Positions 1 through 44,900 of a stretch of 58,102 nt of DNA are shown here, one piece after another. The notes below the pieces were generated by a model. The model saw only the letters and a program-made list of their open reading frames with translations, was not told the origin of the DNA and ran no database searches. The first letter of the stretch is position 1, and every line of letters begins with the position of its first letter. A program made the position numbers and the translations under genes. The stretch comes from Candidatus Omnitrophota bacterium. GTDB taxonomy: Bacteria; Omnitrophota; Gorgyraeia; Zapsychrales; Zapsychraceae. The DNA lies in assembly GCA_018812705.1 (NCBI GenBank), contig JAHJCZ010000184.1:1-58102 (forward strand), written 5' to 3'.

Positions 1-3000
1 AAACTATCTATTTCCTGCTGAAGCCTGTCGCTTAAGTCTCTTCCAACTAACATCCAAGCATGTCCCGCCTTAGCGATCTCTTCTAGCTTAACAGCATAAT
101 CATCGTCAAGCTCCACACCATAATCTTTAAGATCTTCCATATACTCTAAGAAGTACTTAAGCATGCTTAATCTTTCCCCAAAATATTCAAAAGACAACTT
201 TCTGGCTTCTTCTTCATCTAGCCCAAGAAGAATATGGCCTAGGATTTCATGCCTATCTATATCACTAACAAGATGTACTGCTTTCTTTTTGTTGACGACA
301 TTAAAATACCAAGTATGTATGAAGAGTATATTCTGAGTCCTGTTGTATGTCATGATATGCTTTTCAGTTGCTTTTACACTATCAGTAATAACGATACCAA
401 ATTGTGAAGGTAAGGAAGGAACTCCTCTTTCTTTCACATCATCTAAAACTGTATTAATTCTATGTTGCAAAGTGCTCTCTTGGCCTACAACAAAGCTGTC
501 TCCACTAACATATTGAATTCTATATTCTTGCCCCCGAAGACCATTAACCAAAACGGCTTTTGCCACTGTTCGCTGTCTGCCAGAACCAAGCACGACTTTC
601 ATCGGAACAGCTACTGGATATGCTTCTAAATCTGATCCAGGATCTTGCTTGTTGCCCTTGCCTGAATATTTTTTGCGCATTGTAAATGTTCTTTTAACTA
701 CTAGCAATGATCCTGCAAAAGCAAGCATAGCTAAAATAAATCCCACCCAATGATCAGCTGCTGACTTAACAGCACTTCTAATTGAGTGTTTGATCTCGAA
801 AACAACTATCTCTCGATCAATTGCATCAAGATGTACGTTCAATTCTCTAGCAATACTTTTATATGCTTGTGATATTTTATAAAATTCATCTGAATCTTGA
901 GATACGGTCAATACCTTTTCTTGTGCTACTGCATATTCAACAACCTTGTCTTCAATATATGGATTAACTGGATATCCTGTTGTTTTTAACACCTCCGTCA
1001 TTGGCTGATGCATATATCCCATTAATATGATTACACGCGTATTTGCATCCATAGCTAAATCCTCAATAACATCCTTTGCTAATTTTCTTCCACGAAGCTG
1101 ATTAATTGCCTTCCAGTCATAATCAACATGTCCATATATAACTCGATCTAACTCAGAAACCATATATTCTAAAGATGGCTTTTCTGATACAACATCAAAA
1201 CTATACCCTTCATTTTTCTTGCGAGCCAAGTAAGTCATCATTGCGCGGTAATAACCATTAAGCTCAAAGTCTAATCCATCAACATTTCCAGATACAAATG
1301 CCTGTAAAATCATGTCCATATTTTCCTGAGATTTACTATGCTGTGCTGTCAAAAATGGTTCAAAAGCAAATTGATATTCTTTACTGTCTACCAATTGTTT
1401 TGGGTTCATTCCTGGGAAATAAGCATTGAAACTTTCTACTGCATATCCTGGCATTAACAAATTGTTCTCAATATAAATTTTAAGTTTTTGACCGTTGTCT
1501 TTTGCCTCACCAAAAAGATTATCTAAGTGCTCGCTTACTAACTCAAAACACTCTTTTGAAATATGAATTGCATAAACTGGATGAATATCTATATTTTGAT
1601 TTTGTCTTTGTACTTCTGAAGCGTTTGTAGTTAGTGTATTAGTTGAACCTCCAGCAGACGACGGTGCAAATGCAATAACTGCCATGAAAAACAAGGCAAC
1701 AACAATTGTTGCCTTGAATAATTTATTTTTCAACAATCTTCGTATTAATAAAATACTCGTGATTACTGCTCCAACTCCTGCCAATACCGAAGCAACTACC
1801 CAGCCTGACATAACTACTGTTCCAGTTGCCCCTACAACAGCTAACACTTCAACAGCTGCGAACCCTGCATTATTACCTTTCGGCCCTAATGTCTTGCTTG
1901 GATCAGAAGACTCATTCTCACTGCGCTCTGAATCAGCCGCATCAATAGATTCTATTATCTTAAGGACTGCCTCACTGTACTTTCTGCTAATTTGCTTTGA
2001 TGACTCTTTCTGCCAATTAATACTTTTTCCTAAGTCAGCAGCTTCAGCTGCCTTTGTAAACCCTGTAAAATATTTCAACCATGCTACTTGTCTTGGATTT
2101 ACGCTTCCTGTAATGTCATACCCCTTCTTTCGCAGAGAAATACCTATAAGCGCGAACTCATCAAAGTTAGCAAGTTCTCCACACACACATACTGGAATAT
2201 TATAAATTTTTGCAATAGCACATGTTTGAGCTATCCAAACAATGACTTGTTTATTCAAAATATTACGCCCTACTTCAATTCCCATCTCCCTATCAGTATG
2301 AGTTATACAAGCTTCCGCATCATTACTTCCAAAATTAATAACTGCTAGCTTTCCAAAAACCTTTATCATCTCTGCTAGCTCATCTACAGCCTGAGGTGTC
2401 TCAACCATGATCCCCAAGTTTGCAAGGACCTCTTCCTTAAACTCAGCCCTAACTTCATCAACTATCTCTTTAATTCCTTTTGCTTCACTTTCAGTATTTA
2501 ACATTGGGAAAATAACCTGAACTTCGACCATGGGCTTTTCTGTTGTTTCCAAATACTGCTTCTCTGCTGAAGCTGTTGAACGAAGAGCAACTTTTAAACA
2601 CTCCCTGCCAATATCACTAAGCAAATACCATTGTGAACCTTCTAAAGTTGAAGTTGGGTCAACATTTGGCAGTTTAATATTTGCTTTATCTTTGTCTGGC
2701 ATTCTTATTGTCAGCTTTAACCTCTTACCATAAACTTCTGCGGTCTCCTGCAATTGCTTTATAATACCTAGGATCGATCCTGCAAAAAGATCTACTAATT
2801 TCCAGTCGCCATATCCTATTTTAAGAATTAAGAATTCAAATCTTAATAATCCAACTCCTTCAAGGTCTGCCTTTCCTATTAATTCTACGATTTTATTGCT
2901 ATCTGCAATATTATCCAGATTTACTGATATTGGTATTTTCGCGCCATCTTTTGTCTTACAAGTTGAAGTTACTTTTCTATGGGCTTTTTGCAGGAGTCCT

Positions 3001-6000
3001 TTTAGAATATTTTCAGAATCAGAATATTTAGCATACATTTCTTCATTAGGATTTATTATTAGCTCGCCGGCATGAGCATCAATAATCCCATATTCTCCTC
3101 CGAGTAAATTCTTGTAAGCAGAACCTTTTGCAATATTTCCATCTAAATACATTCCAGTAAGAGTTACCAGCCCTAAACTTCTTGCAAGAATTGAAGCATG
3201 TGCATTTTGTGTTCCAAGTTCAGAAACGATCGCTACTACATTATATTGATAAGCAATCTTTATAATTCTTAACGGCGTCATTTCATGCATAACTAGAATG
3301 ACATCTTTATTTTCAACACCGTTTTCTTGATTTAAATATTCTGAATTCTTAAGGCCTGAAAGTATTACCGGTAGATCTTTAGCAAATTCAACAATGGTCA
3401 TACCAATATTTGGGCTGGTCTTCATCATATCTTCACCCATTTTAAATATCTTGCTGATACCAATTTCTACAGCACCGATTGCACTTAAAATGCGGCCTTG
3501 TTCATCTTTTTCTCCAATTAATTCCTTAGATTTCTTTTCTAGTGAAGAATATAGCCCTTGTCCAATAGCAAAGCCTTGTGCTTCAGGGTTATCTTTTAAG
3601 CTTTCTTGAATTTTATCGAACAAAGCAACTTCTCGCCTATATACTAAAAGAAATTTGGCTTTTTCTTTTCTTATCAATCCTTCCAAATCATCAGTCTCTT
3701 CTAAATATCTATCTTGGTCACTTATAACAACATCCCCTTCTACAACGATCGTTCCTTTTGCAATTCTATGTTCATATGAAGCATTACCTCTATAAATAGC
3801 TTCCTTTCCGTCGCTTGAAATATCGTTAAGATCTGCTTTAAAAATGGCCTCTGTTCGTACTCCATATATCTCTGGATTATTAAGAACACTGATAGTCGCT
3901 TTTAATGTTTTAAGATTTTCGGATAAATACTCAATTGTCTTTAGGAGGGCTGTCGCTTCATCATTAATACCTTCTGCGTGGAATCTTTCATGTCCTTCAA
4001 AAACACCCTTAAGGAATTCTAGGTAAGTCTCTTTTTCTGTTGAACTTAATGCAGCGATTCTGTCTAATACAGACGTGTGGATAAATATCTTGTCTTCATC
4101 ATTATTGAATAGTACGATTTGTGCAGTTTCAAATGCAGTGATTGCACCCTTTGTGTTGCTAAGGTTATCTGTTACATACACAGGTGGAGCATTTGACAAG
4201 TATGTAACAGCTTCAAACAGATCTTTCAATGCCTGCAATTGTTGATCGTCTAAAATATTTTGGGCTGGATCAAGGTCAAATACATTACCAACTCTTAGAT
4301 CTATTGTTGTAGCACCATCTAAGACTTCTTCATTATCAGCATAGCTTATCGGTGTATACGGTGCGGCCATTGGCATATCGTATACTTGCGGTACCATATT
4401 CCAAGATCCGACATCATTTCCATTGCTATAAACACCTGAAGCTGCGATCTCAACAGTTTCAGTCTCATTGCTTGATCTCTCAACATCTGCAACAACAAAT
4501 GTTCCTGCAGCAGTTACATATTGACCATTGTCTGATGATACAGCATCAGCCTGTATTAATCTTTCTTTTTGATCTCTTGATTCCTTAGCACCATCAATGC
4601 ATTCTGTATTATCGGCTATTTTATTATTTAACCCAAACCCTGCTGTAATAATGAACTCAAATAATTCTATTGCTGCAAGGGCTAGAGAGAGAGCCTTTCT
4701 TCTTTTACTAGATGTAGTGCCCACATTCACAACCTTCACATCATTATTATTACGAGCCACTCCAGCCACGGAAAGAGTCGATAATTTTGAATGTGATGGT
4801 TGTGAATGCTTTGAACGGGCGAAATGTTTTCTTAATAGTGAAAACATTAATATTCCAGCTGCTGCAGCTGCGATAGTTGCAACAACCCAACCTAATCCGT
4901 TCATTGCTGAAATAACGACAATGCCAATACCTGCTATTGCTACAGGGACTTCGATCGCTGTAAATCCTTCCTGGCCTCTTTTTCTTGAAATTTGTTTGCT
5001 TTGTTTATTTACTGCGGCAGGAATAAGATTTTCATCGCCATTTGCTTCGCGTATCAATCTTGCAACCTTAGAATCAACTAAACTTAGAATATATTGTTTT
5101 GCTTCTCCTTCTCTTCTTGAATCAACTTCCTGAACATCGACCAATGAATGCTCATCAACAATTGTCAATCCTGGATTTTCAGCTTTAACAGCCTCAATTT
5201 CTTTTTCTGATAACCATCGTACAGGTCCATAATACTGCAATTGTTTTGATTTGAAGATGTCTATTCTGTCGCCTAAAGTCTCTTTACTCTGTTTGTAATT
5301 ATTTAGAAGAAGGACTTTCACAGCTGCGTCAAATCTTTGTCCAACCCATCTCGAGATCATTTGAGTCATTTGATGAATAGTCAGTCCAATATTTTCAGAT
5401 TCATAATTTGCGTTCAAGATCATTGTTGAATCTTTCAATACTGTTCCGATTCTCTTATCCATTAAAAGTGGTGCTGATGAAGTAACAAAACTTGAAATAC
5501 CTGTTAATTTAATCTGAGCTCCTTCGATAGCTTCCTGAACACCAGGAACATCTGCATCAACTCTTGCACCATAAAATTCAACATGAGTTATTGGTAATTG
5601 GCCGAAAGCAGGTGAATGAGAAATTTGATCCTGATCATATATTGTAACGCTGTACAATGAGTTCTCTTCTTGTCTAACTGTTTTAAGAGCCAAACCTTCA
5701 TAATGAGTAGGTGTTGGGCTGACATTGATTCCCATTGTTTCAAAATATTTTTTGTAAGCTGCGATAATTCCATAAGGATTGATCGTTTGATCTTCATAAC
5801 CTTTATATTGTAAGATCATGCCCTTCATCATAAGGTTCTTCATGCTTTGGCCGACTAGATCGATCTTTCCGTTTGTTACAAACTGAGCATCTATTACTGC
5901 AGCTGCTGCTAAGCGTGATCTTCTATATTCTTCGAATAAAGTCTTCTCACTTTCAAGGAATGTTACTCTTGCAAAAGCTTCTGTCAATACTGCTACCACA

Positions 6001-9000
6001 CTGTTGCCATAATATTCTGCAGTCGCTCTATCCTTGATACGCATGCTTTCAATTTTATCCATCCATCTTGGGATGATCCCTGAAACAGCTTTAGTTGGAT
6101 CTCCGTCTGCTGTAACCCTTAATCCCCACTCTTGTAAAAATCCACCTTTGATCAAGATAGTAGAGCCTCCAGCATCTTCCTGATTATGCAATGTCATTAC
6201 ACGCGGCATATCTCCAGATACTTTTCCAAGATCCTTTAGCTGTCTCCAAAGTTCTTGCAATACTGTCAATAATGCTTTACTGCTTCCACCACCGGCAAGA
6301 ATAACTGCCCAGTAAGGTTTTCCGTTAGAATAGATATCTTCTACCGTCCCTTTATTATTCTTAAGCGTCTCTAGGTTTGACAAGATTATCTTTAAATATG
6401 ATGTAAGATTTAAAACACCTTCAACATCATTAGCTTGTTTATAATAATCATTGAATGTTACAACTACATTATTCATTGAAGTGTAAGCAATTTTTGTTTC
6501 ATAAACAGCAGCTGCTATTCCTCTTACTGCAGCTATTATTGCTTTCTTAATATCTTCATTTGTTTCAGCAACAAGTAAATTCTCTAGTGCGTAAATAGCC
6601 TTAACTGCTGAATATCCAATTAAACCAAGTGTTTCTATTGCGATCATCTGCTGTCTTGCATCAGGCTTTGCAGCCATAATAATGATTGCATCTAGCGCTG
6701 CTTGTTTTCTTACCACGATGCTTGATTCATATGCTGCAACGATCTCCTGTGCATTTTCTGATACTTGAATCTGCTCCGCGAACACAACGCGATCTTGTTC
6801 ATAAACAACAGTTCCAATTGCCAAGCGTAGATTTGGAATTGGGTTTGCAGCTAATGCACCTGTCATAAGAATTGTATTTGCTGTTGCATCTGCTCTTTGA
6901 TCTTTTGCATCAAGCAGCTTTTCTAAGAAGAAAACAATTGTTGCTCTGAAAGCAGGATTCATTATTGGCATGATCCTGTCAGCTAGGACATATATTGCCT
7001 GCATGCGTACCCAGTAATAACCTGATACCTGTGTTTGATTATCAGCAATGATCTCTGTAAAGAATTCTGTAATACGGCGAAGCTGCAACACTGTGCTTCT
7101 GCGTGCAATGCGGCCTAAAGCTTCAACAATAAGGATCATTTTTTCTGTTTCAAGAATAACCTTTGGATGTGCAGCAACTATTCTTGCCTGAATTGCATCC
7201 ATTTCGCTAGCGATCTCTTCATTGTTTGCATCTTTTTCTAATTGTGCTCTTAACTCTTTATATCTAATATTGTCTTCTACATATTGTGTGTTGCTGCTGC
7301 TCGATACTCCTTCTCTGAACCATTTTATCAATGCTGCAATATCCTCTTTGCTATTTGCCTGAGCAATGTTTTCTTTAGAAGATCTGCGAAGAATGATATT
7401 TCTAATAACATTCTTATTTGTTGTACTTCTCCAAGCTTTAGTCTTATTGCTGTATATAGAAAGCTTTGTAATCGTGTCAATTGGGAATCCGCCTTTTAGA
7501 TCGTGCCATTCATTTTCATGACTATCAGACATAGGAGGTTGAGGAAGACGTCCTCTGACCTTTTGAACCAAATCATAATCTGCTTCAATAATAACTGGAA
7601 CGCTACCAGTAGCCTCTAAAGTGTGTGTATCCATAGCAAACTCTTTAGCAACAACAGGACTGAAGCTCCATGGAACATTATTTAATCCATCAGCCCATCC
7701 AAGCGCGATCTGCCCATTATCATCTCTATACAAATTCTTTCTTAATGACCAAAGCGTTACTCCTCTAAACATCTTTAACCCGCTAGTAGTCACAAGTTGT
7801 CTTGCTTTCTCTATATCTTTAAACTCACTAAGTAAACCGCGTGCATTGCGAACAATTGTTTGAATGTTTTCATCAGTAAATAATACCTGGCCTTTATTTG
7901 CTTTTGCAATTCTGATGATTTCTTGAATTGCAAAAGTCATTCCTTGCTCATTACCTGCGATCAATACAGGATGTAATTCAGATCTCATGTCTGCTGCAGT
8001 TTTATTTGCAACGATCAATGATCTGTTAAAACCTGCTTGCTGGTAACCTGGATAATCATTTCCATTTTCACCAACATTATCACCTGCATAAACCATATCT
8101 AAAGCAACTGGCTGCTCTTCTCTTACTACTGTTAACGCGTTTTGGTTATAATCATCAACTGAAATAAGCTTTCCGTATTTTGTAAAAACCTTCATGTCTG
8201 CTGCACCATTTCCAACAATGATCAAACCTTGTCTAACAAATGCATTGCGCTCGATCAAACGACCAACAAGCCTGCTCATATTGTTTCCACTGATAGCGGC
8301 ATAAACGCCACCCATATCGATCAATTCTTCTATTCCGTCTCTTGTAGGACTATTATGAATACCTTGAATACCTTTAACATCTGGACGTGGTGATGATAAT
8401 ACTGTTCCATCAACATCTGCGGCAAAAATAGTTCTTGTCTTTCTTACATCAATATACTCACCTGCACGATATCCCATAAGATCTAACAAATCACTTAAGC
8501 GTCTTTCTAAATAAGCGATCGCAAGAGATTTGTTAACACCTTTTCTATTAAACTCAAGCGTTGCTTTTCCAGCTTCTAAGACATCTACTGAATATCCAGC
8601 AAGTTGTGCCTCTAACCTCTCGCGAATAGTTCCACGGCTTAGGAAAAATCCTCTTACAGCTACTTGTGATGCTGATCCGTCTGCTTGAAGATTTCTTAAC
8701 TCGATGCGTATTTGTTCATTTTTTGTGCTTACATCATCAGAACCTTTTCTGATAAGTTCTCCGTCGCTAAGGATAGTTCTGTCATTTGCAAATGCCTCGG
8801 CTATTTCAACAAGGAAAGGATTCCTTCTGATCGCTTTAATGAATGCTTCATCACGAGCATCTTCTGAAGAAGCAACAGCATTGCTTATGTTTTTAAATAA
8901 TTCGCGAATTGCAGCTGCTGCTATTTTGACAATTTGATCAACTTGCTTTTTAGATAAGTATGTTGTTCCATTGTTTGCTGCAGGAGCAGCTTTAACTTCT

Positions 9001-12000
9001 CTTGATGCAGATGCTTCAGGAGCAGAGAACTCATCTCTCTGTCCGTGTAATGCTGGGTCATTTGCATATGTAACATTTTCCATTCCTTCTTGAGACATCT
9101 CTTCATCTAAGTACCATGCATTCTTTACATCCGTGAATGAGCTGTTTGACAATGCTGATCCTGTACTTAGAATGCCATTAATATCGCTATCTTTGTTCAA
9201 GTATTGTGTAATTGTTAAATCAATATAAACAGGGTCGTTGAAATCTTCAACAACTACAAATAAATGCGGGGTATATTTCTCAGCACCATCTTTTTTGATT
9301 TGTAATAAAACTCTTCTTACAGATACTTTATTATACCCAAGCGCTTCCAAAGCCTTGACCACAACTGCTGAAACAAAGTCACAATATCCGAATTTAGCTA
9401 CATCTAGTTTTTCTTTAATAACAATTCTATTAAACATCCAATTAACTGCTGCTTCGAAAGATGCTTCCTGTAAATATGCTTTACTAGAATTTACATCTTT
9501 CAAGATATTCTCTGCTGTTTCAACAACATTGATTTGCGCGGTATGAACTACTGCTGCTCTTTCCAATAATCTCTCTGCATCTTGTCTTTGAACACTGCTT
9601 GAAATCATAGAGCCCTCATTTCTGCGGAAAGAACCAACATATTGACCAGCAACATTATTGTTAGCCGCAAATAAAGCTTCTAGTTCTGACTTCTTCATCA
9701 TCATATATGGACGAACATTTGCATCAGTTTTGCTGTTTGCTAAAAATCCTTTTTCCCCATTGATCATTTGAATAATCATGACAATCGCAGCAATTGCTAC
9801 AGCAGCTGCGATACTGGTAACAACCCATCCTAATCCGCTCACGGCTGATATAATCACACTGCCAATGCCTGCAAGAGAAACTAAAACTTCTATGCTTGCA
9901 GATCCGCTGTTTGCATAATTGTTATTGCTTGCTCTATTATTGGTTGGCCTTGGATTTCCTTCGATCTTTCTTAGTGGTTTATAAACATCATATTCAATTT
10001 CAACATCGTCTTGAACTTCACCATTAGCATCAACTACTCTAACAACACCATTGATTATCACTGCATAATTACCATCTTCTAATCTTACCAATGCTCTTCC
10101 TTCATCATCTTCGTCATCCATTTCAACCAACTCATCATATTCAATGCTTACTGTATTTTCATTATTCAATGTATCAATAATTGTTGCATCAGTTAGAATA
10201 TCAATTTCTACCTTGCTTACTTGCTTTCCATTTAGAGAAAGCTCATTATCATCTTCCATAGTTGCTAATACTAAACGTGCTGCCAAAGGATTCTTGATCG
10301 ATCTAACAATTAATTTCTTTCCGGTCATTTTAGCTTTTTGTGCAAACCAATTGTTAACTGCCCTTGCAACTCCTCTTTCTCTGAAATATTTTTCGACTTC
10401 AATATCACTTAGTTCAACTGCATCATCAGTTTCTTTGAAATCTGTAAATCCTGCATATTGATTGCCAACATAAATATCAAAATATTCATTATCCCATTTC
10501 TGCTCTTTACTCTTGATCAACTTAACAGTAGCGCCATCTCTTGTTATTCCGACAACAATAACCGTGTTTGATTCGTTTTTCTCTGTTCTTCTTGGCTGTC
10601 TGTTTGATGTTTTAACTGCTGCACTTCCAGCTGCAACTGCATTTAATACTAGCGCTGGAACTAATTCTTCTTTTCTCATCATCATTACTGTTGTAGCTGC
10701 TGCTACTAACATAGCTGTGATCATCATCAATGTTTGAACTGAAACACCTGCAACGGCTACAGCTGTGATACCAGCTAATGTAAGAGGAACTTCAACAAGT
10801 GTGAAAGCTTCTCTTCTTCTGTCTGTTAATGGCCTTCTTGTTGTTTTTACTTCTTTGGAAGGATCGATGAATAATTTGTTTAATAGAACAACAATAATTG
10901 TTGCAAGAATTGCTGCGATAATGAATGGCGTTACCGTAGCTGGGGTGCTGATCTTAACACCTGTGTTGATCACAGTTGTTGCTTTTGGAATGATGTTGAT
11001 CAATGTGACTGGTGATTCTGCTCTTGCTTCATCATAAATACCTTTCACTACAAATCTTCCTCTTGCCCCGGCATCAACTAACATTGCATCTTCATAACCT
11101 TGTGCGCTTAAGAACTTAGCCATATCACTTAAAGGATTTCCGTATTGTCCGACAAATACATCATCTGTGAAGATCAATGACCATGTACCGTTTGAATGCT
11201 TTGCTAATACTGATTTTGTTCCAGCTCTTGAAGATGTAAGCACGTGTCTGCCATATGTTCCGTTCTCTAATACTATTGGTCCTGCCTGGAATGCGCTGTC
11301 AACTTTACCAGTTTCTGTTGCTCTCTTAATTTCATATCCTTGTGCCTTTGAAGCGCTCATGATCTGTGGATTACTTCCTTTATATTGAACGAATAATGCG
11401 CCAGCTGATCCGTTCGCTTTTTGCTTTCCTTGTGTCTCGCCATCTGCATTGTAAGCCTTAACTTCATTCCCGTTGATAACAGCTAAAGCTGCTGGTGTTT
11501 TATTACCATTCTTCTTAAAGAAGTAATTAGCATTAATAGCTGCAATTGAATCTGGTCTTACCACTGTATCTAATACCATGTCGTATTTTGCTGTATCGAA
11601 ATTAAGAACATGTACTAATTCACCATGTAACATTTTGTATCTTGCGAATGTCATGTTTTCGCCAACTTCTACTGATTCATATTGATTGTAAGCTTGACGT
11701 GCTGCTGTTTGAGCGTTGCCAAAGAATGCGGAAGGAGTAACTTTCTTGCTGCTGAAATCAAATCCTGCAAAAGCCAAAGCGCTAAAGATAACTACTGCTG
11801 TAATAATACCAGTTACTCTCTTAGCTTTTGAACTAACAACAACCTTTACATTGCTCTTTGCTAATATTGTTTTTCTTAATGATATCGCGATAAGAATTGC
11901 TGCCGCGCTAAGGCCTATAACAATTACAGTAAATACTGATAATTCTGAGAAGGTAATAGCTGCTAGTGTGATGCCTGCAACTGCAAGAGGTGCCTCGATT

Positions 12001-15000
12001 ATTGTGAATGCGCGTCTTGCTGATGTTCTTCTTGAATCTGCAGAATTTCTATTTGATAAGCCAAATACTTTTGAAGTTGATACTACTGCCGCCACGTTCT
12101 TAATATTTCGAACCACTCCAACCACGGATAGAGTCGATAATTGTGTAACTGAAGGCTGTGAATTATTTCTTTGGGCTAAAAATCTTCTGAATGCCGCTAT
12201 AGATAAGATCCCTAATCCACCTGCGATCAAACTTGCAACTGCAGGTGTTAGGTCTGAAATGTTTTGTGCTAAGAAGCTTGCTGTCATAACCGCTAAACCA
12301 ACAACTGTGATCACAACAGGAACTTCGACTAATGTGTATCCGCTGTTGTTTCCTGCTTTTCCTCTATTATCGCTATCGTTACCTTCATCCTTTGAGTTAA
12401 GTCTCTTGATAGTTGCTCTGATATTTGCTTCCCAATCTAATGCGTCATTTCCTTCTTTATAAGCGTTTGCGAAAAGTTCAGCTGATTCGTTTAATAAGCT
12501 TAATGCTTTTGCTTGATCACCAGTATCATATGAAGCTGCAGCGACTACATAAGCAATAGCTGCTTTCATATAATTGATACTTGGAACATCTTGCTCTAAT
12601 ACATTTGTGTTTGCCTGGAAGAAGTTTTCAACTGTTTCTGCAGTTATGATAACATCTTCTTTTCTTCCTGCTTCATAATAGCTATCCATAAGTGAAGCAA
12701 ATACCATCAATCTATCCATTGCAGACATATGTGTTCTTTCAGAAGAAGCTAAGTGTTCCAACATCTCTACTGCTCTTGCAACTTCGCCATTATTTTTCTT
12801 AACTTCAGCAAGTCTTTCATAATTTCTGTAAGCTTCAGTTAATGCTGTAAGAATTTCAATAACATCATTTGCGTTCACTGCAGGGAATACTGCTTGTGGC
12901 AATACTGCTAAAGCTTCTTCATAACAGCAAATAGCTTCTTCAAAATCATTATTTCCAACTAATACATCTCCGATATCTTTCATGTTTGCTGCCTGAACAA
13001 CTTGACGTTTTGTTTGTGTATCGCTAAGGATCGCTTCAAAAGCTTTTCTTTGTCTTGCATCAGCAATGTCAGTTAGCTTGTTTCTTAATGCTTGGATCTT
13101 CTCTTTATATTGTCTGCTTAACATTTTGTTGATTTCAGATAATTCAGCTCCTGCATTCTCAACAGTTAGAGCATCTCTTCTAGCATTTTCAAGAACGGCA
13201 ATAGCTTCTCTGCTCTTATCGTCTTCTAATAATTCAATCGCTGTATCGAGAGCAACGTTAATATCTTCAATTGTTTTGGCCTTTGATGGGAATACTTCGA
13301 TGATAGTTACTCCGTTATAAGAAGATGCGCCAAACGCTCTTGTTTTTCTTGCTACTGCTCTTGCTCTTCTTGCATAATCAATTTCTACTATTCTGCTTGA
13401 TGTGTTGCCCGCATCCACAACCTTCACATCCTTATTATTACGAGCCACTCCAGCCACGGAAAGAGTCGATAATTGTGAAGATGATGGTTGTGAATGTTTT
13501 TTACGGGCAATATATTTTCTGATCAAAGCTAACATTAAGATTCCAGCTGCTGCAGCTGCGACAACTGTAGAAACCCAACCTGATCCGCTAACCTGCGCGA
13601 ACATAGCTAACATAATTGGCCACGCATGAGAATGTAATGTAGTGCTGTTATTGTTTTCTGGTTGATTTACTCTTGCTTTGTTGCTTACTTTTTGATTTTT
13701 AAGGGAAACTCTTATCTTTGAATATTTGGCAGGAACTATGAGGTTGATACTTGCGAATTCTATATTGATTTCAGAAGCAGGAACAACTCCCACTACTATT
13801 CCTTCAGCATTTATAGCCTTAACCAAGAGCGCACCTTCTTGAATAGCTTTTAATATTTTTGCTCTAACAGCATCTTGTAGTCCTTCAGGAACTTCACTTG
13901 CTAATAATGTAACTTTAATAACATTATTTTCTACTTCTCCAATAAGAGCATCTTTTGAAATATTCTCAATAACTTCCTTTACAATCGCCTGAACTTTTTT
14001 ATAATCATTTTTTCCTTCAGAAAACGCATTGAATATATGCATTACATTCCAACCTAATACGCGTAGGATATTCTCGAAAGCTACTTTAAACTTAACAACT
14101 AATACAACCGTTAATACCGCATTAATGATTGCAATTATGCCTACTGGGATAAAAGTGATCGGAGCAAATATAATACTTAACATTAATAAAGCCAACGTTC
14201 TAAACCATATTTTAACAGCCTGTCTTTGACCAAACATTTCTGACAATCGCCATCCAGATAATGTTTGTTTACTGCTATCATTCTTATCAGTCTCAACATA
14301 AGTATCAAATACATCTGTACCTGTTAAGAACGCTATAACCGCTAATAAATATGGGACTACAAACAACATACCAATTAATGTTGAGAACATCGTTGAGAAT
14401 ATAAATCCAGCAATTGCAACGATTGCAACGATACCAGAAACAGGTATTCCTTTTGTTGTAGCGTTATTCATATGGTGAATAATACCTGCAATAACAAAGC
14501 TAATAGCTGATCCAATAAGAGCATATTTAACTATCCAGCCAAGACCTGCTGCAACAAAACCGGTACCCACAAGAAGCCCGCCAACAAGACCTAATCCTGC
14601 AAGAATAATGCCGATTCTAAAGAATCTGTTCTTTACAGTACCATCTAACTGCGCTCTAAATTTGAAAAGCCTATTGCTTTGGAAACGTGTGCGACGATCT
14701 TGAACACCAAATACTGGCTGTTTTAATGTAGGAACAAACGAGAACATTTCATTAGCTACCTTAACACTTGCCTCCGCAAAACCGATGATCATTGATACTG
14801 TATAAGGGAAGGCTTGAACTGTATCTTTAGCAAATCTCCCTATTGCCTTCCAGAAATTACCGGTAATAAACATATGGCGCAAGAAGTTGAATAAACTGAC
14901 TGAATTCATCATAATAACGGTTAATGAAAGGAAGGCGATAACTGGTTTAAGGTAAGCAAATCCACTGAATGGTTGCAAGAATGGCAATGCAACTAATATA

Positions 15001-18000
15001 ACAACCGCAAGCATTGATGATAAATAATGGAAAGCGTTTTGTAATATGTTCAACTTGAAATCTGTCCCAACAAATTTATTTGTAAAGGTCTCAAACATAG
15101 CTGTCGGTAAAATTAACTGTGCTACGTTAAATGTATAACGGCTTTCTGTTCCAAAAACTGATTCCGAATGTAGAGATGGACGTGACCATTCCCAAACAAA
15201 GTATCCTTCACAAGTTGCTGTTGCTTCAGGTTCCATATTTTTCTGGATCATAAAAGCACCAGAGTCTTCTACAGGAGTCATTAATAATGTATCCCCAGAT
15301 GCTGGGTTAACAATACCTTTACCATAGAACAATGTTAGATCTTGGTATCCTAGCTGTGATACTTGCGTAAATGTTTGTTGCATCATTTTATACATGCGTC
15401 GTCCTGGGAAGGCATAACTACTTGCACCCCAGATCAAGAAGGCCGGGTTCATAACAACATATTCTGGGTTACGTCCCATATAAGCAGCCGTATTAAGTCT
15501 GTATGGGTTAGATCCTGGCATAACACGAACAAGCGCATCCTGGTTAGCAGATAAACTTCCTGTTAACCAAATATTCACCCCAATTCCACCATTCTTGAAT
15601 GTTGAAAGAATCTCATCACCTGCGTAAATAGGAACATGCGCATTGGCTTTATGTTGTGTATTAAATACATTCGCAAAGTCGACCATTTCTTTAAACTCTT
15701 TAGCTTTGGTGTAATTCTCCTCCATAAAGTGTTCATATTCTGCTTTTCTGAACCCAAGAATAACATTAGCGAATTCATCTGTTGACTCGAATAAGAAACG
15801 ATCCTGACTTTCGCCATCAACAGCAACAACGCGATTATGAGCTTCAGCTTCTCCATAAAGATTAACTATAAAGTGATAGAAAGCACGATGAACAGAAATA
15901 GGATCACCTTGTTGTGCAGCTTCAGATTCTTTTCTTCCTTGATTAAATAGTTTTGCTACTGGCAGAACACCCCACTGAAGTGTTTTTGATTCACCCTTTT
16001 CTACAACATTAACAAGTGTTGTTAATCGACGAATTAAACTGTTTTGTGGATTCGCATTTTGCCACATAGTAGTCATCTGCAACATTTGGAAGATCTTAAG
16101 TTCAGCCATCTTCTTATAACCCTTTTTGCCATCTTTGGATTCAAATTCATCAACAAAAACTTGCATAAGTCTTGCTTTTTCCACGTCAGAAGCTCTTACG
16201 GCAGCAATCTCTTGATCTGTCCAATTATCCTTAGCCAATTGAACCGAACCAAACTGCTCATCAGCTAACTGAACCGCATGACGATAATCAATATTTCCAT
16301 CGTTATAAGCTGCTGCCAAATGAACAGCAATAACATCTTTAGCAAAACCATCTAATACAGCCATATTAGCTGCATCAAGTTCATCAAGAACAATACCAAA
16401 TATTTCAGCTGCATCTGCATAAGCTTGAGGATATTTCTTTAATATCTCAAGGAAGTTTGTTCTTTCGTTAGCACCTTCAAGCTCTTTAACAAGAACATTA
16501 TGCCCACGCTTTCTAAGTTCCTTAAGAGCATTATTGTATTCATCTGGATGAGTACGCACTAAATAACCGAACATATTTGCTTCAATTGTACCATGCTCGC
16601 TAGCTATTTTTAGAGCATAATTAACAACTGTCTTAAGAATAAAGTTTGCTAAGAATAATCTCTTTTCAAGAGCTTCCTCATCAATTGCATATTTGTTAGC
16701 TATCGGTTCTAAAGGACCTTCCCATTTAACACTTTTACCATCTTTACTCATTACAGCTTTCAACTCTTTTAAAATATCATTTCGCTTGTTTTCTGGCCCT
16801 AATAAGATTCCCTTAAACACTGCCTCACCTAAATTACTAATAGTAAATTGTGGCATATTTTTCATTGCTGTTATTATATCGCCAAGCAGTGCAAATCTTT
16901 CAAACCAATTAAGTCTTTTTTCTTTTAGATGACCATTAATGATTCTCTCTAACTCTCGTATTTCCTTTCTCTTAATCATCAACGACATTGTTCCTGGACG
17001 AATATACTCTTCTAATTGATGACCAACGATTTCATTGTATGACTGAACATGTGTTCCCATTTGTTTATGGCGTGCATATGTATCCATTGGAGTTCGGCGG
17101 TATGCGGGTGACATCATGTTCATATAAAGATATTCGCGTGCCTGTTCACCTTTGAATTCTGGGAATTTTTTACCTAAGTATGCTGCTTTAATTAGAGCTT
17201 CGACGTCCTCATCAGAAATACGATATAAACGCTTTAGGTCTGTTGCAAGACTTCTAATATGCTCAACAAACAAAACGTTATTAGGCATAATGTAACCATA
17301 ATTATTTTCAGCTGAACCGTATTCTGCGTTAAGAGCTCTAAAATAACGTGCGTCAGATGCAAATATACGGAAAATAGCTGCGAACATATTAGCTCTACCA
17401 CGTGCACGCCTGCTCCAAAGATTATTGCGATAGTTATAATATGCCTTACCAGCACGGGCAACTTGAACTAATGACAAGACACTAACTACTGATAACATAA
17501 GTAACAATACAACCGTATTGATTGCACCAGCACTTAACCATACAACTGAATAATATTTTCCAAAAACTAACCATGACATACCACCCATCAAAGATGAGAA
17601 TGCACTTCCAACAAACGCCCATAATGCTTTCTCACCTCTAACTGGCATATATGCAAATAGCAATGGCAGTGTTATTAAGGACATCGTTGCCAAGAATACA
17701 AATAAACCAACTTGAGCCGTTAAATATATAGAAACTACAGAAGATGCAATACCTACCAACATTAATCCATATACTAACGCACGTACCTTAGCAGATCGAA
17801 TTCCCAAGATATCTTCCAAAGTAGTTTGATACTTGCGTCCGAATCGATTATTCTCAAATTTGGCTAAATAGCCTACGAACAATCCGAATATTCTGTAGCG
17901 CATGAAACTCCACCAGCCCTTGCTCTCAGCTTGTTTCTTTTCCGCTTTATTAGCATATGGTGAACGTTCCCCAACGATCTTTTGGAAATGATCTCTAAAC

Positions 18001-20945
18001 GGCCTAAATAAAGGCAGTAATATATTGTTGAAATATTTATCAAATGTATTTCCTTGTTTTACATTAGCTCTATAATTTTTACCGTAATCCTGCATATCTT
18101 TCCAGGTAGCTTTTGCTTTTGCAGCAAGTGCTTCAGCAATTTCTTCTGTATTTGTAGCTTTTGAATTCTCTAGTGCCGCTGCTGCTTGCTTAAGCATTTC
18201 TTCATACTCTTTAAAGATGCTTTTGTTGTATGAAAGGTCCGTCTCTGAACTTACTTCTTCTTTGCGCATACGTTTAGTTAAGTCAGCAAAGACAAGTGTC
18301 ATATTTTCATCATACAGTGTCTCACTTAAGCGTAAGTTAGGTTGTTGCTCATTCTTACCTGTTGTACCATCAACCTTACCTGTTGTAATATAGATATAAG
18401 CACCATCTCCACCATCATTTAACTGCTTAATATTATTCATGAAGAATACATAGCGCCAGTATAAACGATTATTCTTGATCAATTTATGATATTCAGCTAT
18501 CTGATGGCTGCCGTAAACATTATCGCGGTTATGTATCAAATATGCCGTTAAAAATAATACTTGTGTAAAAATAAGGCCATCCCCACCTAAAGATATGCCG
18601 TCTGTTTGTTCTTTAGGTGCTTGTAAATATTTAAAGACTACATACTCTTCATAAGTTACTGCTTCAGATGTTTTAAGAGCCGCATTTGGATTAACAATCA
18701 ATTTCATATCTTTTGGTTCAACTACACCATTCTTTATTGTTGGAAGACGTGATGGTCTTAAAGATACATAGAACATTAATTCAGCAATAACTTGCTGATA
18801 GAATAATTTTTTCAGCTCATCAAACTTGATTCCAAAACCATGCTTATTAAGAACTGTGTCGATCATAGGTGTTAATACATTGTCACGTACATAACCGATA
18901 ACATCTTGTTTAAAGTTTGTAAATCCTGCCAATTTCTCTGCAAACCTGTCATCTTTTGCAAGTAATTCAACGGCAAGGCGTGCTTCCGGTGTCATTAATT
19001 TCCTTAATAATACGTGATCTTTAGTGGCGCGTTGTTCAACTTCACGTTCAAGCTGTTTCTTCAATTCATTTAGAACAACCGCTTGTAAGATACTTGCATC
19101 ATCTTCAGCAGTCTTCTTATCTTTTGGTTCATATTTCTTTCTATCTCTTAAATACTTAGTACGTACCTTTACAGCCACTGTTACAAGGCGTTTTAATAGG
19201 TCTTCAGCCTCTTTATCTTTAAGGTCAACATTGTCAAGATAATAAACTATAGCAACCGCATCAATAACACCTGCTTTTGCCATTTTCTCAATTTGCTCTA
19301 ATAATGGTCTACTTGTATCGAATGTTACTTTTTTATTATCATAGTAATTTTCATGAACTTCTTTGAATGTTAATTTTCCACTTTCATAAGCTGCAACAAT
19401 GCTATCAATTTCTTGTTTATCAAAACCCTCTTCTCTTAATCTGTCTCTAACAACCCTACCATCACGTCGTTTTTCTAATTTCTCTAAAGAGCCATCCGTT
19501 TTTACACCTTTGACCAATTGATCTAAAGCTGCATCGAATGTTTTGTATTCCGCTGGTGTCAATTTACGCTCTTTGCGTTGAACATCTAAGAATATTCTTA
19601 ATACAGCAACCTTCATCTCAAATGAATAAGCACGTTTAAAGTTGGAGAAACTATCACGATCACGCTCTTCAAGTTTAAATTGTACTAAAATATCTTTAAA
19701 TAAATGTTCAACTTCCGGACGTTTACCTGCTACAAAAATGCCACCTTGTGCTTCACGGGATACTAGCTTCCTAGCTAAACGTTTAGCTTCAGGTTTGCTT
19801 ATTCCTTTTTGTTTTTCAAGAACACGGGCAATATCTTTTGTTATTCCTCGATTAGCATTAACAGAACCAAAAGTGCGATTCCATAAACGACTTATCATGC
19901 GATAAACTTTTGAGTCTTTGATGCTTGAGATAAGAGTTAATAACATTACAAGCGTTAGAGCAAGTCCACCTGCAACCCACCATATGTAAGAACGAACCTG
20001 ATCTTCATAAACATTTTTACTTAAGTGTTCTGGAACCTTACCATCCCAAAGCTGTGTTCCTTCTGTTGCAAGAATTTCAAATATTTGACTCTTTGATATA
20101 TCGCTGTCTCCTGTCCATAAGCCAACTGCTATTGTATCTACTATACGTCCTGGGAATGAGTTTCTAAATAGGTCTGTCCAGGTTTGCTCATAAACATCCA
20201 AGTAAACTCTTTCGCCTTCAATCTTGTTGATCAATCGATCATAAAATTTAAATAATTTATTTTCACTTTCTCTCTGTGCTTTAACGACTGCTACAAGCCT
20301 ACCGTTTTTAACATCAAAGATTCTCACATTAACTTCGTTAATATTGTTTGAATCTGGAACATCTCTTATAACTCTGTATTGACCAAATGAAGTGTTAACA
20401 ACTGTCATTTCATAATGGCTATATAATTGTTCGTCTAAATTAGACATATCTGCTCTTGGATCTAGGATCTTTGCTACTGCATCTCTTTTATGCTTGAAGA
20501 TACCGCCAATTTTAGTATTGTATATAGGCATATTTGAACGAGAATATGAAATACTATGATAATCTGCATTAATTTCTCGAACTACACCAGTTTTCACATT
20601 ATAGGCAATAAAGATATCCTTGTTAATAAATGCCTGTTCGCTACGATACTCAAATGGAACTTTATAAAGATATTCGTCACCATGTTGCATTAAGAATTCT
20701 GTTCGGCGAGTAACCATATTTAACGTTTTGTTAATAACTGTTTCCCCTGTTGTCGTACCTAACATAACTGATGCAGGTGCTTCATTTGCGCCTACTGAAG
20801 TACCGTCAACCGCGACATTGTCATCAAATTGCATGAACCTTATTACCTTACCTTCAACAACAACATAATCCCTTGCTAATGGATCGTTGTATCCTAAATA
20901 TCGGACAACACCCATATCAACAAATTTACTATCATCAGTATACTT
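1..20945 (-). CDS. Segment E of giant protein (>=6,980 aa, runs off left edge; absent from ORF track)
   Basis: Frame opens after TGA 20946-20948 (KYTDDSKFVDMGVVRYLG...) and is the same frame at the left edge (...AWMLVGRDLSDRLQQEIDS). No stop was found in manual translation, and the track lists no long closed ORF here, as expected if the frame has no stop inside the window. Confidence 0.93.
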
Positions 20946-41900: not shown

Positions 41901-44900
41901 TGCTGGAGCCTTACCTATTATGAATATGGTAGGCAGAGGTTGAATTGGCATAATATTTATGTCAATAGGTGTTATATCTTGATACATTGGGTCTAGTGGT
42001 TTTAGCTGAATATCTTGTAAAGCTTGTGGATCTTGACCCCATATTGGTTTCTCTTTATATTGTGGCAATTCTGCTGTTTCTGATAATTTTTCGCCCTTGA
42101 GAGGCTCTATAAGCGCAGGTTTTTCAATAAGACCTAGTTTTTCACCCAATTCTGGTCTATTTATATCACTTTGTACTGATACAACAGCTTCTTGCTGCTT
42201 TGAAGGTGGGAAAATAGTTTGAGCGTAAGATGATACATTTGTTGAGAACGTGACAAATAATATAACTATTATCATCAACATTTTTTTCCATTGACCATCC
42301 ATTTTCTTTATGATGGATATTGTTGTATCTTTAGCTTTAACAAGCCAAGAAGGGCCTATTTTGGCTGTTTCTACTGCATCATCAGATTGCTTTGCGGAAG
42401 TTTCATCAGAGCTTGCAGAAGTTCCGCCCTGATCATCGCCGTCATCTTTATCATCATTATCCTGCTTTTGAGCTTTTTCGGCCTTGGTCTTTTCTGCTGC
42501 TTCTTTTTCAGCCTTTGCTTGTTCTACCTTTGCTTTCTGATCTGCAGCAATTTGTTTTAAGCCATCAAATGACTCTTTAACACCTTTTATAGCCTCTGCA
42601 GCTGAATCTTCTTCAATAGCAACATCAGAAATAATATCAAGAGCTTGTTTAGCTGCCTGATCACTTAATTTATCACCATCTTGTTTTACTGTTTGTGCTA
42701 ATGCGTTCAATTCAGGAATAACTGTCGAAGCACTGTTTTCTGAAACAAGATTTGCTAGTTTTGCTGCTTTTTCAGGATTCTCCTGTTCTGAACCAGTTGT
42801 TGCCGCCCAACGCATTAAGAACTCAAGACTGTCGTTATCATCAAAGACGATTGGATCAACATAAAGGACATTTTCCTCATCAACAATTGGCATCAATGAT
42901 GATCTATTTTGTTGTGATCCAATAACAATTCCATTAAATGTAGCTAAATTCTCTTTAATACCTTTTAATTTCTCTGCTGTGCGCTGCAATCTTAAGATAT
43001 CTGCTTCCACATCACGTCCTTGGGCAGTTACAGCAACTCCATTAAATTTCTGGCTTCTTTGTACCTGTAATCTTCTTAATCTAACTTGTTCATTGATGTT
43101 TTCTGCTTCTAAACTTGCAAGAGCATCTTCAAGTATCTGATCATTTTGCCCAAAATCAGACGTTCTTGTCCAAACAAGGTCTTCTTCTTTATACTTGCGA
43201 TATGCATCATCATCTAATGCTTCAGGATTGACTGTTTTGTGTGTTACATACTTATCAGCCAGCAATTCAAGCTTATCAACATTATCCATCGCCATTTCAA
43301 GCTCAACATCTAGCTGTTCTAACCCTTCAAGAGCTTTAACAATACGTCCTTGCAACCTAGCAAAATCTATTGGAGAAAGATCCAATCTATTTGTAGCAAG
43401 CCTTAATGCTAGATCCTGAACTTCTGGGTTGTCTTTAATGCTTTCGTTAGCTGCAATTGCTTTAGTAATACCTCTGCCCTTTAATAATGTTTCAGGTTTC
43501 AATTCTGCAGCAAACTTATTACCAACAATACCAATAACATCTTTAAATCTAAAGGCTGGAGTCTTAGTTTTTCCTGTTAAGATCCATTTTCTAAATAAGA
43601 AAGTCTCTCCTAATATCTTGGTTAATGAATTCACCGTATCTTTATATTCTGAATCAACTCTTAATCTATCTCTCAACTGTTCTACTTGCTTTCTGCTAAC
43701 AATTAATCCGCCATTTGCAGCTTCTGCAAGAGCAATGAGAGCTTTGTAAGCAGGTTCTTCTGTATCAATTTCATCTTCAAGCGTATCAGCATCTATCAAG
43801 CTTGTAATAGCTTTAGGATTATTAGCCATAAAGGCAACTGTACTTATTGTCTGTTTCTTAAACCACTCAGGAGCAACCGATTCAATAAAGCCTAATGTAT
43901 ATCGGGCTCTTGCAAAATCTTTTATCTTATTAACTTCACTATTAATTCCCGCAGCCTTAAAAGCCTGAAGAACATCTATATGATCTCCGCCAAGCTCTGC
44001 TTGAACCTCGCCTATTGGTGCATTAATGTACTGATTGAGATCATTGCTTGATTTAGATATCTTCTTGTTAAGTTTTGCCTTTAATAATCCATCTTTAATA
44101 TCTGTTACTTTGCTTTCCCACCATGATGTTTGAGGAATATTTTCGCCATTCTTGATCCTGACAGTAGTATCATCCTGATGCTTTCTCGTTACAGCTTTTT
44201 GGAACTCTCCGTATTGCTTCTGAGCTTTTCTCTCAACTTCTCTTAGTTCTTCAGCAGCATCTCTGGTCTTGCTAAATTGCTGGATTAGACCATCATGCTT
44301 ACCATCCTGATTAGCCTCTTCTAACTTGCTAATAATCAAGTCAAGGCGTGGCTCAGCGGTTGTTGACATCCTCACCTTACGTAAATCTTCTCTTAATTTA
44401 TCAAGCTCAATATTCAGCTCTTGTTTAGCAAGAGTTACAAGCGTATCAACATCCCTTACTCTAGCATCCGTCTTTGTTTGTAGAATCAGAGCCAATGTGA
44501 ATATATTCTTTTCACTTTCAGCTGGAACAAATGCCTCAATCAAAGTCTTTTGATCTTTTGGATCAATAGTAGAAATATGCTCATAAAGGTCAAGAATTGC
44601 ATTACCTTCGCGTGTCAATAATCCTTCCTGTACAAAACCTCTTCTTTCTAATTCAGCAACAACCTGATCAGCTTGAGCTGGTTTTATCTTTCCACTCTTT
44701 GTTAGGCGTTGTTTAATAGCTGTTGCATCATAATATGTATCGGCAATACCTCTAATTTCATCTAATACAGCACCCAATGTCTCGCGTGTAGTATTATAGT
44801 AAGTCACATTCTGTATCTGTCCAAAAATACGATATCGAATATTTGCGCCTAATGAGGCAGCTGATTGGATAGCAGCTACCGCTCTTTGTCTATCTGCCTT

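Follow-up and report, generated by a model that had tools for sequence, protein, structure and literature searches.

The window analyzed in this study is the 58,102-nucleotide (nt) contig JAHJCZ010000184.1 of a Candidatus Omnitrophota bacterium, one entire contig (G000:C117) of a 2.69-Mb genome that is 92.8% complete. Its minus strand encodes giant proteins in which five hydrophobic segments (S1 to S5), located thousands of residues from the N terminus, have the form of Sec signal peptides that are cleaved by signal peptidase I (SPase I). These segments probably act as internal export, or start-transfer, signals for periplasmic modules of giant inner-membrane proteins, whether or not they are cleaved. 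This assignment is built on the presence, composition, and flanking charge of the segments, on the protein families found downstream, and on persistence in relatives. From these features we infer the orientation of the segments, their use of the Sec machinery, and their origin as cassettes.

Five signal-peptide-like segments lie inside two giant ORFs

The five peptides listed in an initial annotation of this DNA were all located on the minus strand; its lower coordinates proved exact, and its upper ends were 0–9 nt too high. S1 (KKMLMIIVILFVTFSTNVSSYA↓Q; 42222..42287), S2 (RKALAAVAAIMLFANNAYA↓G; 38910..38966), and S3 (KVALGTSAVLLSVGIANQAVA↓S; 35331..35393) belong to open reading frame (ORF) B, in which they occupy amino acids (aa) 3073–3094, 4180–4198, and 5371–5391. 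S4 (KRVTGIITAVVIFSALAFA↓G; 11766..11822) and S5 (KATIVVALFFMAVIAFAPSSA↓G; 1653..1715) correspond to aa 3032–3050 and 6401–6421 of ORF E. All features given below are likewise on the minus strand. The predicted cuts, marked by arrows, are SYA↓Q, AYA↓G, AVA↓S, AFA↓G, and SSA↓G, respectively.

As had been proposed, each of the five has a basic n-region, a hydrophobic h-region, and a c-region of small residues. The net charge from lysine and arginine (K/R) is +2 to +5 ahead of each segment and −1 to +1 behind it, and the hydrophobic cores comprise 12–16 residues (12 in S1 and S2). The c-regions of S1 to S5 read STNVSSYA, NNAYA, NQAVA, (S)ALAFA, and PSSA. At every site the residues at −1 and −3 are small and uncharged, and proline is absent from −3 to +1. 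Strict Ala-x-Ala is present in three of the five (S2, S3, and S4), and serine occupies −3 in S1 and S5. What sets the segments apart from N-terminal Sec/SPase I signal peptides is their location, 3032–6401 residues into the ORFs. In ORF B, no clear membrane segment precedes S1, which comes after ∼3070 residues. Applying the positive-inside rule, we predict that all five run from an N terminus in the cytoplasm to a C terminus outside it (N-in/C-out), toward the side of the membrane where SPase I acts.

The minus strand is occupied by five tightly packed ORFs, A to E (translation table 11). ORF B (32091..51503) encodes 6470 aa, and ORF E (3..20915) encodes at least 6971 aa and leaves the contig end. 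ORF A, which is open at the contig end, encodes at least 2197 aa, and ORFs C and D encode 833 and 2897 aa. ORFs A and B are in the same frame, a TAA and one codon apart (51501–51509). B overlaps C by 40 nt (32091–32130), D overlaps E by 22 nt (20894–20915), and C and D are separated by 41 nt (29587–29629), with a change of frame in each case. These junctions may be true gene ends, frameshifts, or assembly errors. The initial annotation had assumed one ORF across the entire span. This premise does not hold, as the span is divided among four ORFs (B to E) that use different frames, with short overlaps, and the sites, three in B and two in E, fall in at least two proteins.

Pfam domains detected in ORF B are CheR, SecA_DEAD, SecA_PP_bind, P-loop_SecA, and Amidase_3, and those in ORF E are NAGPA, CofD, and PEP-utilizers. 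Hydrophobic segments number in the dozens, with 27 overlapping windows in ORF B and 58 in ORF E.

Modules of exported type follow the segments

The architecture around the segments is consistent with the following mechanism. Each segment would be preceded by a cytoplasmic K/R-rich stretch, which for S4 and S5 is the end of a pilin-like hairpin and for S3 the end of a polytopic block. Insertion of the segment would then be N-in/C-out, presumably by way of SecYEG, and would initiate translocation of whatever comes after. The translocated part would be a ∼1080-residue region including Amidase_3 for S3, the NAGPA module for S4, and a ∼300-residue module for S5, the latter two each closed by a return helix. 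In the case of S2, it would be only the 10 residues that separate S2 from the helix anchoring the SecA-like ATPase encoded in the same ORF. The signal-peptide form of the segments would be explained most simply if they derive from, or were selected as, cassettes for exported proteins.

Just ahead of S4, ORF E carries a pilin-like two-helix hairpin (RRAFTIIEAPL...; 11859..12014; aa 2968–3019). The NAGPA (phosphodiester glycosidase) domain behind S4 (11040..11546; aa 3124–3292) was matched at E 1.3e-07 with 32.4 bits (cut-off 25), and the helix that closes its module (10863..10928; aa 3330–3351) is followed by K/R-rich sequence. A second hairpin of this kind (NNAGFAAVEVL...; 1740..1868; aa 6350–6392) is found ahead of S5. 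The S5 module (750..1652; aa 6422–6722) belongs to no recognizable family, and its return helix (693..749; aa 6723–6741) leads into KRTFTMRKK. In ORF B, a polytopic block with ∼10 hydrophobic segments, as counted by eye (35403..36590; aa 4972–5367), ends just ahead of S3, which can be taken as its final helix. Among the ∼1080 residues after S3 is an Amidase_3 (N-acetylmuramoyl-L-alanine amidase) domain (33117..33686; aa 5940–6129; E 5.9e-07, 30.1 bits, cut-off 27), a region that also has a weak match to CwlV (E 0.4). Members of the Amidase_3 and NAGPA families are usually extracytoplasmic.

The helix after S2 (38805..38879; aa 4209–4233) begins 10 residues past the segment, is predicted to run from outside to inside, and anchors the SecA-like motor. 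The SecA_DEAD, SecA_PP_bind, and P-loop_SecA matches (37284..38621; aa 4295–4740) have E-values of 4.7e-13, 8.2e-08, and 6.5e-05, the last at 23.1 bits and thus below its 27-bit cut-off. This ATPase must be cytoplasmic, and the helices that precede it are even in number (S2 and one more), which fits the orientation assigned to S2. S1 is paired with an out-to-in return helix (41070..41138; aa 3456–3478) that is followed by RSGRRNRERR and was oriented by the positive-inside rule. The intervening stretch is of low complexity.

Two kinds of repeats were also noted near these modules. Between the S1 return helix and S2, in a stretch of higher G+C content (0.43), ORF B contains imperfect tandem repeats of ∼75 residues (...VEGVSKPEELGTSGSSLV[KR]EQARISSVGSEGSIGD...; aa ∼3550–3850; window ∼39900–40900), which are kept in the same-genus genome G046. 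ORF E contains five or six motifs that resemble pilin (class III) signals and have the form G/A-[FY]-[TA]-x-[IV]-E-[VA] (1740–12338; aa 2860–6392). Each motif opens a two-helix hairpin. Behind three of the hairpins comes the linker HSQPSxSxLSTLSV[AV]G, whose STLSV[AV]G portion has three copies in the window.

The S5 module yielded no Pfam match at E ≤ 5. Its AlphaFold2 model, made from three sequences, was poor (predicted local distance difference test score 60.2), and Foldseek found nothing in the PDB at E ≤ 0.001. A wider structure search (VIA) matched the C-terminal helices alone (Z ≤ 9.9), and the best score against the ESM Atlas (0.88) was to unnamed clusters. The module has two homologues of 24–27% identity, and H, E, FPG, and G-x-x-H are invariant in all three copies.

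Related giant proteins keep or exchange the units with signal-like segments

The ORF B orthologue in G046 is 77% identical over B aa 2501–5797. The core of S1 has been largely rewritten there, and the n/h/c architecture and a terminal ...LQA↓Q are kept. S2 is identical, and the helix that follows it has diverged. S3 ends in ...ANQAMA↓G, so that AVA↓S has become AMA↓G with alanine retained at −3 and −1. A search with the SecA module returned mostly housekeeping SecA (133 of 151 genomes) and was informative for G046 and G006 alone. In G006, no signal-like segment was found ahead of the SecA-like domain.

Of 150 other genomes belonging to the order, 5 carry the NAGPA module, and the copies in other giant ORFs share 27–35% identity with that of the window. 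Upstream sequence is readable in three NAGPA giants, two of which have textbook signals (...GTGAAEA↓Q and ...MGTAEA↓Q) and one a helix that ends in ...MALS↓Y. A fourth NAGPA fragment, from the representative library, is preceded by a segment that ends in ...GALS↓T. The G046 contig stops just ahead of the site, and G057 contains only the end of the domain. Among the named records for relatives of this module, three of four are Candidatus Omnitrophota/Omnitrophus metagenome-assembled genomes, and one is labeled Elusimicrobia.

The S5 module is present in 3 of 150 other genomes. A 32,560-aa ORF in G098 has the same order of parts as the window: a hairpin, K/R residues, a segment ending in ...ILSVRSTNA↓D, the module homologue, and a return helix. 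Past this homologue (G098:C3), we noticed GASGAVYG and H-x-x-x-N in a multi-helix block that resembles a rhomboid protease by eye. In a 74,522-aa ORF of G063, the homologue is preceded by a segment (SRRYFFRF...) resembling signals for twin-arginine translocation (Tat). G046 (C38) has a different polytopic cassette at the slot that corresponds to window positions 693–1868, between the same hairpin and the same KYSGKxNxQDPGS linker. Signal, module, and return helix therefore behave as one exchangeable unit at this slot, a pattern that points to cassette exchange between close relatives.

Other classes of export signal also appear within related giant ORFs (G012:C5, G098:C3, and G063:C1). Lipobox signals such as ...LVALSGC↓D and ...AIVCAGC↓A occur internally three times in the forward sequences and not at all in mirrored ones. 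The Tat motifs SRRNFIQ, SRRRFLK, NRRGFLK, and SRRYFFRF are found deep inside giants. A loose Tat pattern is not enriched (three forward vs. five mirrored), and the SRRxF(L/I)(K/Q) forms alone stand out, by eye.

Canonical candidate sites exceed a mirror-image control

The frequency of signal-like strings was assessed with a rule-based detector. A match had to combine an n-region of net positive charge, an uncharged core (10–20 residues), small residues at −3 and −1, no proline, and a non-hydrophobic downstream region. As a control, the same ORFs were reversed, which keeps composition and helices and turns the out-to-in helices into the test class. In addition to the window, a large set was scanned that comprises 254,371 aa in 31 ORFs (25 of this genome and giants of G012, G097, G098, and G006), with 100 residues cut from each ORF end to remove true N-terminal signals.

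In the window, the loose rules gave 13 forward and 11 mirrored matches, and requiring a hydrophobicity of at least 2.2 gave seven of each. Requiring alanine at −1 with alanine, valine, or serine at −3 left seven forward and two mirrored matches, and strict Ala-x-Ala left four and none. Four of the forward matches lie in regions that we read as globular: the SecA-like region, a weak Glucosaminidase match, Amidase_3, and the sequence just past Amidase_3. In the large set, the class with alanine at −1 and alanine, valine, or serine at −3 numbered 67 forward and 50 mirrored (one-sided p 0.07), and Ala-x-Ala numbered 33 and 14 (one-sided p 0.004, or ∼0.03 when corrected for seven related filters). 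Many of the strict forward matches in relatives are textbook signals.

The residue after the predicted cut shows a similar bias. Among clusters with alanine at −1, glutamine occupies +1 in 8 of 105 forward cases, compared with 1 of 92 mirrored cases (Fisher p 0.028), against a background of 4.0%. In 340 N-terminal signals picked by rule from the whole genome, glutamine is likewise the commonest +1 residue (36/340, 3.8 times background), and it reaches 26/200 among those with alanine at −1. This preference is reminiscent of the rule reportedly described for Bacteroidetes in a "Q-rule" paper.

These counts lead to two conclusions. Most loosely signal-like strings are chance products of helix ends rich in alanine, glycine, and serine. 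Within them there is a modest, specific excess of a canonical class, to which S2, S3, and S4 belong by Ala-x-Ala and S1 by A↓Q. Strict Ala-x-Ala and +1 glutamine thus exceed the mirror control, and the looser classes do not.

Several observations weigh against export signals of a distinct kind. In the 31 ORFs, forward and mirrored matches do not differ significantly under the loose rules (164 vs. 171) or at a hydrophobicity of at least 2.2 (127 vs. 117), and in G006 by itself the mirrored loose matches outnumber the forward ones (50 forward vs. 69 mirrored). Uncharged runs have similar lengths in in-to-out and out-to-in helices (medians 21.5 and 20, p 0.36), and Ala-x-Ala at the outer helix end is about as frequent in both (11/56 vs. 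7/59, no clear difference). A position-specific scoring matrix trained on 324 rule-picked N-terminal signals of this genome gave the five sites scores of 10.3–12.9, at the 25th to 50th percentile of the training set, and many other helices, forward and mirrored, score like S1 to S5. Topology was assigned by eye with the positive-inside rule. The relatives compared are few and akin: G100 and G097 are of one family, and G012 is, in sequence, the representative P0003. Finally, no stand-alone NAGPA homologue was found among the seven matches at E ≤ 0.001 from 1.84 billion representatives, and a search for a stand-alone S5-module homologue gave no match at near lengths. The three significant NAGPA matches among representatives are fragments or giant ORFs, and a scan of genome contigs gave four loci that are presumed, without inspection, to be the giant ORFs already found.

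The initial annotation had offered captured genes as an alternative origin of the segments. This idea gains from the internal lipobox and SRRxFLK-type Tat signals of related giants. As these searches found no stand-alone homologue of either module, recent capture of a free gene is only a candidate origin.

The simplest alternative is that S1 to S5 are ordinary, uncleaved transmembrane helices whose outer ends, rich in alanine, glycine, and serine, mimic a c-region by chance, with neither signal-peptide ancestry nor selection. The equal loose counts, the common helix length in both orientations, and the failure of the scoring matrix to separate the sites from other helices are what this alternative predicts, and the helices of these ORFs are indeed rich in alanine, valine, and glycine. 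However, chance mimicry does not readily account for the forward excess of Ala-x-Ala and +1 glutamine. Nor does it readily account for canonical AEA↓Q signals ahead of NAGPA modules that share only ∼27–35% identity, or for an S1 that preserves its architecture and A↓Q despite a rewritten core. Moreover, the 12-residue cores of S1 and S2 are short for a stable membrane span. We therefore consider ordinary helices quite unlikely as an explanation for the five segments and favor export signals.

Possible cleavage of the giant proteins

If the segments are export signals, then some of them may also be cut. Three S26 signal peptidase genes are present in the genome (G000:C137, C195, and C108). One forms the usual lepA-lepB pair. 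The other two encode paralogues of 275–277 aa with N-terminal extensions of ∼110 residues, one of which has a weak match to DUF5683; within the 3-kb loci read, neither lies beside giant genes. Cleavage by SPase I at any given site is possible from its sequence, with chances that we place somewhat below even.

A more ambitious proposal, which builds on the export role and does not exclude it, is that the sites constitute a cleavage code: SPase I would split the chains periplasmically at SYA↓Q, AYA↓G, AVA↓S, AFA↓G, and SSA↓G, beside cytoplasmic cuts at pilin-like G↓FT(L/I)(I/V)E. The canonical −3/−1 residues, short cores, and orientation of the segments are as such a code would require. The forward enrichment in Ala-x-Ala (33 vs. 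14) and in +1 glutamine (8/105 vs. 1/92) also agrees with it, whereas depletion would be expected, we reason, if accidental cutting were harmful. Further agreement comes from the three S26 paralogues, two of them with the long extensions, and from the strict pilin-like pattern G[FY][TSA]..E, which occurs five times forward and never mirrored in the giant ORFs of this genome. Internal lipobox (three vs. none) and Tat signals in related giants would be hard to use uncut. However, the enriched Ala-x-Ala class covers only three of the five sites, S1 and S5 having serine at −3, and the loose classes show no excess. In addition, helices packed on a neighboring hairpin may be shielded from signal peptidase.

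A 33,383-aa ORF in G012 (G012:C5) contains the motif [TV]-N-[ASP]-[AS]-V-L in 62 copies forward and none mirrored, at a median spacing of 332 aa. Synonymous codons vary at every position, so the motif is one of the peptide. A hydrophobic signal-like segment lies within 50 residues after 10 of the 62 copies, some of Sec, lipobox, or Tat type by eye. This recurrent sequence may mark junctions or cleavage points of a polyprotein, and the signals often found right behind it are in keeping with a cleavage code. Against such a code in the window, the pattern N[ASP][AS]V[LIM] has no matches there; it is also absent from G098 and nearly so from G097. No recurrent junction motif of this type was found in the window, where the top 5-mers of the ORFs occur at most three times. 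Only the pilin-like motif (five or six copies, ORF E) and the STLSV[AV]G linker recur.

Overall, the cleavage-code interpretation appears to be a reasonable hypothesis with modest statistical and comparative support. We regard the code as proposed here as rather doubtful, and the same holds for the broader claim that cleavage would be systematic and functionally required. Still less likely, in our estimate, is the fullest version, in which the giants would be bacterial polyproteins processed by SPase I at periplasmic Ala-x-Ala sites (often A↓Q) and by prepilin peptidase or lineage-specific junction proteases on the cytoplasmic side.

The segments could also take a signal-peptide form if some of them, S1 above all, were the N-terminal signals of proteins initiated internally. 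In-frame ATG codons do occur just upstream of S1 (MDGQWKKMLM...), and the orthologue retains one Met there (KKMGG...). However, S2 to S5 are without a nearby ATG, and none of the five sites has a Shine–Dalgarno-like sequence upstream. The frames are open for thousands of codons in a genome of 37% G+C, and strict forward matches do not have a Met in the 14 residues ahead of them more often (12/46) than mirrored ones (7/34). Internal initiation is thus very improbable, and internal export signals are the preferred reading here as well.

Comparison with known systems

ORFs B and E are members of a published kind of giant Omnitrophota gene, whose products combine numerous membrane helices with a divergent SecA domain. 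"Archaeovorin-type" proteins (West-Roberts et al. 2023, 10.1101/2023.11.21.568195; also 10.64898/2026.06.07.730766) are encoded by Omnitrophota ORFs of thousands of residues and have many helices, divergent SecA DEAD and preprotein-binding (PPXD) domains beside helices, and cell-wall-active domains. The window matches this type in its long ORFs with many transmembrane segments, in its Omnitrophota origin, in its cell-wall-active domains, and in SecA DEAD and preprotein-binding domains that are distinct from housekeeping SecA. A separate SecA-like ORF of ∼1000 aa is encoded on contig C102 of the same genome.

Whether these giants function as single chains or as pieces is an open question in print. 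Both propose C39/S8 peptidases for processing, and one calls the cleavage points unknown (10.1101/2023.11.21.568195; 10.64898/2026.06.07.730766). The 2026 preprint (10.64898/2026.06.07.730766) deliberately suppresses internal signal-peptide calls as chunking artifacts. The words "signal peptidase" and "polyprotein" appear in neither paper's accessible text. Internal SPase I-like sites would therefore supply concrete candidate cut positions, as well as periplasmic module boundaries for structure prediction. If the segments are uncut, they still provide a topology map, in which the amidase and NAGPA modules are extracytoplasmic and the SecA-like, CofD, and PEP-utilizing modules cytoplasmic. If they are cut, the secretion peptidase would have a general role in the processing of bacterial polyproteins.

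Compared with the Sec signal peptides cleaved by LepB (family S26), S1 to S5 share the n/h/c organization, an h-region of 12–16 residues, small residues at −3 and −1, no proline at +1, N-in/C-out orientation, and exported-type domains behind. They differ in lying 3032–6401 residues inside their proteins, in coming after other helices in the case of S3, S4, and S5, and in having cuts that are only predicted. Uncleaved signal anchors and start-transfer helices are also internal hydrophobic segments that open translocation of the next loop. However, these have longer h-regions, whereas S1 and S2 combine 12-residue cores with a polar c-region. According to Nilsson, Whitley and von Heijne 1994 (PMC2120157), cleavage goes with short h-regions and anchoring with long ones.

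The initial annotation held that there is no general bacterial equivalent of processing at internal signal sequences, which is roughly right for a general system; our literature search for natural bacterial internal SPase I cleavage brought up eukaryotic or viral work only. Single cases exist. The Bradyrhizobium japonicum FbcH cytochrome b/c1 precursor is said, in work by Thony-Meyer et al. from 1991, to be split at an internal signal-peptide-like sequence. FbcH resembles the giants in being a bacterial membrane protein in which an internal signal comes ahead of a periplasmic domain. It differs from them as a single fusion of two parts, whose processing has reportedly been demonstrated, rather than a giant of many modules. 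Engineered Lep cleavage cassettes exist as well.

The other close parallel is with polyproteins of the flavivirus type, in which internal signal sequences are cut by host signal peptidase, as proven in the eukaryotic endoplasmic reticulum. The chains described here differ in being bacterial and chromosomal, with cuts predicted from sequence. The two systems are alike in being long multi-pass chains, with in-to-out helices that carry small residues at −3 and −1 ahead of lumenal or periplasmic parts. If the Omnitrophota giants do prove to be polyproteins, then one ORF would give rise to many separately localized proteins, a cellular counterpart of flavivirus-type processing.

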